Shown here: piece after piece, positions 252 through 1,030 of the stretch | Numbering within the stretch: the first letter of the stretch is position 1 | How the letters are laid out: every line of letters starts with the position of its first letter | Source: Shigella phage phiSD1 | Length of the DNA: 42,072 nucleotides | Reading direction: 5' to 3' (one strand) | Sequence record: PQ571306 | Notes under the pieces: model-generated | What the model saw: only the letters and a program-made list of their open reading frames with translations | What the model was told of the DNA's origin: nothing | The model's database searches: none | Program-made: the position numbers and the translations under genes

Positions 252-668
252 ATGAAACTTTCTGATTTTTATTTTGCCGACCGCCACGCTGCCGGTACTA
301 AAATGCCCATCCTTCTGCCAAGTGGCAAAGACTCTGGCGAATGGTTGCAGGTCATTGGCCCAGACTGCGATGCTGGCGTTCGTGCAGGCCGCGCCTACAC
401 AACGGCAATTCGACGTCTTACGGAAGAGCTTGCACCCTTAGATAAAGAGTGCGAGGCACTGAATAACTGGGCGCGCTATAACGACGAGAAGGGCTGGCGT
501 GTGATGGACCTGAACAAGCAGCTTGCCGTGGAAATCGTCACCGGTTGGTCATTCGATGAGCCGTTCAGCAAAGAGGCGCTGGCTAACCTGTTTGACCAGT
601 ACAGCGGACTGGCAGAAGCCATCGTTAAGCACCACACCGATAGCCGCGAGAAACTCTCGGAAAAGTAA
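252..668 (+). CDS. Tail assembly chaperone (G-like), 138 aa
   Basis: Immediately upstream of tape measure gene; its 3' end overlaps a -1 frame ORF (644-1030); RBS aagga upstream. Confidence 0.5.
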   Translation: MKLSDFYFADRHAAGTKMPILLPSGKDSGEWLQVIGPDCDAGVRAGRAYTTAIRRLTEELAPLDKECEALNNWARYNDEKGWRVMDLNKQLAVEIVTGWSFDEPFSKEALANLFDQYSGLAEAIVKHHTDSREKLSEK

Positions 669-1030
669 AAGCGCTGTATGAATTTGCGCAATGGTGCTTT
701 GTCGACCGTCACAAACGTAAGCAATTCGACGACATCGCGGCGGGCCACCAGGCGGCTTTGATTGCAATGGGCGTGATTAAAGAACCGCAGATGAAAGAAG
801 CGACGGGGCCAGAATGCCCCGTTTCTCTTATCGACGTGTTCGAGAAATACCGTGCCATTAAATTCCTACAGCGCGAAACAGATGATACTATCGTTATAAT
901 CCCGCGCGATGCGCTCAAATGGCAAGATTTGGTAGCGTTTCGTGATGTCGCCGGTTACGGCATAAGTTTGTTCGAAGCCGAGGTTATCATGGGCTTAGAC
1001 GGAATATTTGAGGGCAGAGAAGATGGCTGA
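644..1030 (+). CDS. -1 frame extension giving a GT-like fusion chaperone (with 252-668)
   Basis: Open frame with no in-frame ATG until 767; position and length match lambda-type G/GT architecture before the tape measure gene. Confidence 0.4.
   Translation, partial: PRETLGKVKALYEFAQWCFVDRHKRKQFDDIAAGHQAALIAMGVIKEPQMKEATGPECPVSLIDVFEKYRAIKFLQRETDDTIVIIPRDALKWQDLVAFRDVAGYGISLFEAEVIMGLDGIFEGREDG
657..666 (+). other. Candidate -1 programmed frameshift site (cggaaaag) joining the 252-668 and 644-1030 frames
   Basis: -1 frame is open from 644 and overlaps the last 8 codons of the G-like ORF; GAA AAG lysine-codon slip region; not a canonical X XXY YYZ heptamer. Confidence 0.35.

Follow-up and report, generated by a model that had tools for sequence, protein, structure and literature searches.

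A conserved A_AAG-stop shift site and a candidate long-range stimulatory helix in the tail assembly chaperone genes of a Kagunavirus-like siphophage

The window, by which we mean the whole stretch of 42,072 nucleotides that was analysed (Shigella phage phiSD1, record PQ571306), contains two overlapping reading frames upstream of the tape measure gene. Their best explanation, to which we give a probability of roughly 0.8, is a -1 slip on A_AAG immediately before a stop codon, by which a short chaperone would be extended into a fusion of 259 aa, with a long-range RNA helix (H1) as the inferred stimulator. The signal that conservation points to is the known A_AAG shift site together with its adjoining stop, and not a heptamer of the X_XXY_YYZ form. 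H1 is conserved; neither it nor its relocation between clades appears to have been described before, and H1 is probably a long-range frameshift stimulator.

Judged from its sequence, the locus is the tail assembly chaperone pair of a Kagunavirus-like siphophage, of the lambda G/GT type in function. Kagunavirus phages of E. coli (SZH-1, K1H, Bas70-76 and others) match the region with 89-93% identity, and our assignment of E. coli as the host comes from these closest phages. The chaperone ORFs, the shift site, the arms of H1 and the tape measure gene are all on the + strand. The G-like chaperone ORF at 252-668 (ATG at 252, TAA at 666-668), which defines the zero frame, encodes 138 aa and matches Pfam Phage_TAC_4 (PF08748) with 36.8 bits against a curated gathering threshold of 21.1. 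The -1 frame has a TAG at 641-643, is open from 644 and ends with the TGA at 1028-1030, and it overlaps the first ORF by 25 nt, the stop counted; these are the limits that had been proposed from the sequence alone, and they are correct. The -1 ORF matches Phage_TAC_18 (PF23812) with 64.5 bits (gathering threshold 27, E=1e-17), the match starting at about residue 39 of the open frame, and the predicted T-like extension, at 665-1030, consists of 121 codons and the TGA. PHROG 15027 ("tail assembly chaperone", 259 positions) is matched over positions 1-138 by ORF 252-668 and over 137-259 by the -1 ORF, and because both ORFs are needed to span it, we conclude that the profile was built from fused proteins. 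With both halves matching chaperone families, the arrangement goes beyond chance.

The tape measure protein gene (1023-3332, ATG at 1023) is directly downstream; its identity comes from phrog_1538 (E=2.8e-197) and from annotation in relatives. GAGGG is found 8-9 nt 5' of its start codon. The T-like ORF and the tape measure gene overlap by 8 nt (1023-1030, ATGGCTGA), and because the T-like stop overlaps the start codon in this way, frameshifted ribosomes would end on the tape measure initiation site. The proposal in the sequence-only reading that this is a G/GT-like pair is borne out by the match of both halves to TAC families, by the position of the tape measure gene, by protein conservation of the -1 part from its first codon, and by the equivalent fusion that is present as a joined CDS in phage K1H. 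The further claim of a lambda-type architecture stands as regards the overlapping pair directly upstream of the tape measure gene, but not as regards the tail tube gene, which does not adjoin: a leftward cluster of about 2 kb lies between the tube gene and the chaperone gene in K1H and Shashou. In Shashou (L201, 12271-14390) this cluster encodes a small hypothetical protein, a phosphatase/exonuclease and a superinfection immunity protein. Positions 1-250 of the window begin inside the same leftward cluster, so placed that the chaperone gene opens its own rightward unit, and such a separation of tube and chaperone genes is unusual for G/GT synteny.

The zero frame of the first ORF ends CTC TCG GAA AAG TAA. 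The putative shift site is G_GAA_AAG at 659-665; its conserved core, A_AAG, occupies 662-665 and includes the last sense codon, and the zero-frame stop at 666-668 follows directly and, with the preceding G, makes the -1 codon GUA (Val). It had been noticed from the sequence that this is not an X_XXY_YYZ heptamer, and that observation is accurate. The label "non-canonical" that went with it is right by the heptamer rule and otherwise misleading, as A_AAG/NNA_AAG is an established bacterial -1 class (PMC5009743). A_AAG is an established minimal -1 site in E. coli, where a single tRNA-Lys (mnm5s2UUU) decodes both AAA and AAG, and its efficiency is set by the 5' flanking bases and by 3' stimulators (PMC5009743).

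We compared this site in 140 non-redundant sequences of relatives drawn from IMG/VR and metagenomes. In 135 of them the first ORF closes with A_AAG and a stop directly after it, and all 135 share the phasing seen in the window, where GAA AAG TAA occupies 660-668, AAG is the zero-frame codon and AAA the -1 codon. The stop is UAG in 95, UAA in 39 and UGA in one. The two bases before A_AAG vary (GA, GU, GC, UC, CA, AA or GG), and the heptamers are distributed as G_GAA_AAG (93), C_GCA_AAG (16), G_GUA_AAG (8), A_GCA_AAG (6), A_AAA_AAG (3), G_GCA_AAG (3), G_GGA_AAG (2), U_GUA_AAG (2), G_UCA_AAG (1) and C_CAA_AAG (1). Only five of the 135, those with A_AAA_AAG or G_GGA_AAG, have a full X_XXY_YYZ heptamer. 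Tandem re-pairing of GAA as GGA, which the sequence-only reading had put forward, is not the conserved feature, as the codon before AAG may be GAA, GUA, GCA, UCA, CAA, AAA or GGA. Textbook heptamers occur at the shift site in L042, L083, L142 and L147, with G_GGA_AAG as in lambda and A_AAA_AAG as in dnaX. In its predicted shift sites, the chaperone family samples canonical and minimal forms alike.

The position of the predicted shift can be narrowed further. In four relatives the -1 frame opens right at the heptamer, with a -1 stop just before it, and the overlap is reduced to 10 nt (the heptamer plus the stop), the minimum seen; a shift in these relatives must therefore be limited to the last two codons. 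The base after the stop of the first ORF (669 in the window) is A or C in 132 of the 135 sequences and G in none, which may reflect a weak termination context or a preference for certain residues at the -1 codon. One relative, L145 (IMGVR_UViG_2162886012_000023), reads GCA AAG UUA UAG CGC UGU, with the stop one codon downstream, and retains A_AAG, the 5-nt spacer and GCGCUGU. Because its stop is displaced, strict adjacency of the stop is not absolute, barring a sequencing error. No conserved Shine-Dalgarno-like motif was seen at -10 to -14 in alignments inspected by eye. Four more distant relatives (L049, L051, L052 and L053, with 31-35% ORF1 identity) have a -1 extension of about 100 aa without A_AAG-stop; their overlaps are longer and hold other candidate sites, such as A_AAU_UUU in L052 and a U run in L049.

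In essentially all of the 135 A_AAG relatives, down to about 43% ORF1 identity, the -1 frame adds 120-122 aa, and the +1 frame is never open in the relatives examined. The protein sequence of the -1 extension is conserved from the first residue on, as V-x-A-L-Y-x-[FY]-A-x-W (V139, A141, L142, Y143, A146 and W148). No start codon is conserved 5' of the AMG motif, and in several lineages a start codon is lacking up to residue 48-95. These observations bear on the possibility that no frameshift takes place and that the downstream ORF is translated from ATG 767 or TTG 758 as a separate protein of 87-90 aa, as most gene callers have it. We consider this very improbable, as the 31 codons 5' of ATG 767 are conserved as protein from the slip site on, the Met itself is lost in several lineages (AIG for AMG), and the frame relation and A_AAG-stop are invariant in 135 sequences. 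The 87-aa version has been called by automatic callers on 241 contigs, and the late start of the Phage_TAC_18 match would suit it. It would also suit the genome announcement for Shashou, which reports no canonical slippery sequence (PMC6776780), although Shashou itself carries G_GAA_AAG-UAG and the long-range helix.

The predicted frameshift fusion is not new, as it is annotated in K1H and has been in GenBank since the K1H deposit. The junction LSEK|VKALY predicted for a -1 slip at A_AAG in K1H is an exact match to ADA82316.1/YP_009168853.1, and the RefSeq record for K1H has a joined CDS at exactly homologous coordinates alongside the short product. A junction one codon upstream, which would read LSGK, is absent from the protein collection. 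The K1H pair, ORF19A/ORF19B (ADA82315.1/ADA82316.1; YP_009168854.1/YP_009168853.1), resembles that of the window in its equivalent coordinates and in about 91% nucleotide identity; unlike the present analysis, the joined CDS there is annotation alone, with neither a shift-site rule nor a stimulatory structure. In Bas76 and SZH-1 two separate genes are annotated, and most sister genomes have either a separate "hypothetical protein" of 87-119 aa or two ORFs.

A fusion might also be made by RNA polymerase slipping on a run of A residues, and the site in the window does contain AAAA. In most relatives, however, the run is only 3-4 A long (as in GGUAAAG and CGCAAAG), while A runs known to be prone to slippage are far longer, and the conserved phasing with the stop and H1 suits a ribosomal mechanism, so that we find slippage during transcription hardly credible. 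Given the invariant A_AAG-stop, the constant length of the extension, the lack of a conserved start codon and the short A runs, independent initiation, termination-reinitiation and RNA polymerase slippage are all poor explanations.

To look at constraint on the RNA, we considered synonymous variation in 15 representatives with less than 93% nucleotide identity, which gave 77 conserved degenerate codon columns. Only four of these columns have zero synonymous variation: K138 AAG, V139 GTA, A141 GCG and L142 CTG. The shift site and the overlapping stop account for the frozen AAG and GTA, but they do not account for GCG-CUG. The sequence GCGCUGU, which starts 5 nt after AAG, is complementary to ACAGCGC 202 nt downstream (868-874 in the window). 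In the window these segments belong to the longer helix H1. Its 5' arm occupies 671-686 (GCGCUGUAUGAAUUUG), beginning 5 nt beyond AAG, and its 3' arm, at 859-874 (UAAAUUCCUACAGCGC), is within the T-coding region; the arms form 15 pairs with one U/C mismatch and enclose a loop of 172 nt, and their assignment is based on minimum free energy and ensemble pairing and on covariation.

For comparisons of H1 between lineages, 123 sequences were grouped into 38 clusters at 80% identity. A perfect complement, RCAGCGC, is present at +202/+199 from the stop in 25 of these clusters and at +128 in the other 13. The first position is that of the clade to which the window belongs, and the second is that of a clade including Jerseyvirus-like phages and Shashou. 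The position of the 3' arm thus differs between the clades while the 5' arm stays fixed beside the shift site, at a distance of 5 nt from AAG that is invariant in 135 of 135 sequences, L145 included.

Several tests support H1 as a structure. The region 660-890 of the window folds with -79.6 kcal/mol (z=-3.8, with none of 200 shuffles as good) into a domain closed by 671-686:859-874, and RNAalifold recovered this closing helix independently in each clade. The 10-bp core is paired almost throughout in a set of 73 distinct arm pairs. Base pairs change at both partners at several positions: pair 16:67 is C-G in 62, U-A in 10 and U-G in one; pair 21:62 is U-A in 31, C-G in 19 and U-G in 9; and pair 22:61 is G-C in 56 and C-G in 10. 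Over the same 73 arm pairs, 76 cells carry two-sided changes, where shuffles give 31+-5 (0 of 500 as high), and pairing in the real register is 78%, against 25-48% when the partners are slid. At the level of the 38 clusters, pairing of a 7-bp core holds in essentially every one; at the ninth pair, 14 clusters have U-A, 13 have C-G, 6 have U-G and 5 have a mismatch. Partition function calculations in several sequence contexts covered 15 diverged representatives, and in 12 of these the ensemble probability of the core was 0.85 or more. In the +128 clade (clade B), the 3' arm is constant at the level of bases while the encoded residues differ (A/T/P and R/Q/P), which points to selection on the RNA.

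Some of these figures need to be read with care. To enter the covariation table, a sequence had to be complementary over 6 bp or more at the class positions, as 128 of 134 were, and because sequences were chosen in this way the core pairs of H1 are partly paired by construction. Several of the compensatory states trace to only 2-4 clusters. The ensemble probability of H1 is near zero in lineage L047, and L080 has no clear partner for the 3' arm. Duplex energy does not single out H1, as about 15% of control 25-mers in the region match its stability within 400 nt. Both arms also code for conserved peptides (ALYEF, and KF[ILV]QR in clade A), and for that reason their variation is restricted.

Other structures were considered at the locus. 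A local hairpin or pseudoknot 3' of the site was rejected, as the segments 666-760 and 640-720 do not fold more stably than their shuffled versions (z=+1.2 and +0.2, respectively), and RNAalifold found no structure in 16 diverged sequences over 95 nt. The minimum free energy structure between the arms of H1 is 40-70% paired in relatives and is not conserved, and we make a claim for H1 alone. Rfam covariance models gave nothing better than E=1.4 over 560-960, and full-text searches of open-access papers found no description of H1. There is a GC-rich hairpin at 802-823 (GACGGGGCC...GCCCCGUU, followed by a U-rich tail) with a terminator-like score; it lies inside the T-coding region and the H1 loop, encodes the conserved GPECP motif, and is only about 60% paired in relatives, with some two-sided changes.

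From the observed architecture, conservation and covariation, and from the annotated fusion, we infer shifting, its efficiency and a role for H1 as follows. Most ribosomes would translate 252-665 and terminate at UAA 666, giving the 138-aa G-like chaperone. A minority would slip by -1 on A_AAG (662-665), with tRNA-Lys moving from AAG to AAA, and would then read GUA-AAA-GCG-CUG and on to 1027, giving the 259-aa fusion (LSEK-VKALYEF). Going by lambda gpG/gpGT, this product would connect the tape measure protein with the tail tube subunit; in lambda, the ratio of G to GT is critical for tail assembly. Three conserved elements would act in cis, namely A_AAG, the abutting stop with A or C at +4, and H1. 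With AAG in the A site, H1 would start at the mRNA entrance, about +12 when counted from the first base in the P site; this is the usual geometry for -1 stimulators such as those of dnaX and IS911. There H1 could resist unwinding while tRNA-Lys re-pairs, and re-pairing of the P-site tRNA would be dispensable. The abutting stop could offer a second pathway, in which the P-site tRNA alone slips during the wait for the release factor.

As translation would mostly stop at the foot of H1, few ribosomes should pass through its loop (110-190 nt), and H1 could therefore re-form between ribosomes and persist. The fullest version of this proposal is that a plain long-range helix around 110-190 nt of trans-frame coding sequence serves as the stimulator at a minimal A_AAG-stop, that its distal arm has been relocated (from +202 to +128 or the reverse), that its loop is nearly free of ribosomes, and that the G:GT ratio is self-limiting through transient melting of the helix; we would give this version even odds.

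It is also conceivable that the shift needs nothing but A_AAG and the abutting stop, a "shifty stop" at which tRNA-Lys slips in the P site, and that H1 serves instead in mRNA stability, RNase processing, silencing of the T region or tuning of tape measure expression. The stop does abut the site in 134 of 135 sequences, with A or C and never G at +4, and with AAG in the P site H1 would start at +9, already within the ribosome. The duplex energy of H1 is not exceptional, and lambda G-T is not known to depend on a downstream structure. What such an account leaves unexplained is the fixed distance of the 5' arm from AAG, 5 nt in every sequence and even in L145 with its moved stop, a spacing typical of -1 stimulators, as well as the fact that the 3' arm has moved between the clades while the 5' arm has stayed beside the shift site. 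We therefore think it unlikely that the shifty stop acts alone, and favor a stimulatory role for H1.

The nearest functional parallel is lambda gpG/gpGT (Levin, Hendrix & Casjens 1993; Xu, Hendrix & Duda 2004, as cited in PMC5009743). As far as the account given there goes, the two systems have in common overlapping ORFs directly upstream of the tape measure gene, the second being in the -1 frame, without a start of its own, and forming a C-terminal extension, as well as, by prediction here, a tRNA-Lys that slips on A_AAG close to where the first ORF ends; according to the same account lambda has the full heptamer G_GGA_AAG, whereas here the first codon need not re-pair. Unlike lambda, the present locus has a stop abutting the site and a conserved long-range helix after it, and a leftward cluster parts its chaperone genes from the tail tube gene. 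Membership in the lambda G/T families was not detectable either, the matches being to Phage_TAC_4 and Phage_TAC_18.

Sites of the A_AAG/NNA_AAG type are known from IS1222 (G_CGA_AAG), IS3 (C_CAA_AAG) and Bacillus cdd (A_CGA_AAG, an incidental shift) (PMC5009743), and the IS3 site recurs as the C_CAA_AAG of one relative here. IS1222 and IS3 differ from our case in encoding a transposase and not a tail chaperone, and in having a local hairpin or pseudoknot where the candidate stimulator here is a simple long-range helix. Long-range stimulators have likewise been described, including IS3411-type pseudoknots with a second element 44-104 nt away, an element more than 200 nt away in T7 gene 10, and the kissing interaction of luteoviruses (PMC5009743). 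Unlike in those, the proximal and distal arms here would form the whole stem, with no local stem 1, the loop codes for the trans-frame product, and the distal arm is found at two positions in sister clades.

The locus is of value chiefly because it yields a clear rule for annotation and a tractable system in which to study minimal-site frameshifting with a candidate long-range stimulator. Annotation of the frameshift is at present uneven across the Guernseyvirinae, with a joined CDS in K1H, a separate ORF in most sisters, and one announcement that denies a slippery sequence. A rule consisting of A_AAG, a stop, a 5-nt spacer and a GCGYUGY that pairs downstream would make uniform annotation possible. 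The locus also offers frameshift predictors such as PRFect a non-heptamer case with phylogenetic support. As a natural model, it could be used to ask how a minimal tetranucleotide site works together with an abutting stop and a long-range helix, whether a stimulator can extend across coding sequence when the only ribosomes to translate that sequence are those it has redirected, and how a stimulator is re-wired between clades in the course of evolution.

A further overlap is present downstream of the tape measure gene, where an ORF of 172 aa (GTG at 4186; 4186-4704 in the window) overlaps the preceding gene by more than 150 nt. At the equivalent of 4186-4704, the K1H record has a shorter product, with the note "no RBS, translation may be coupled".
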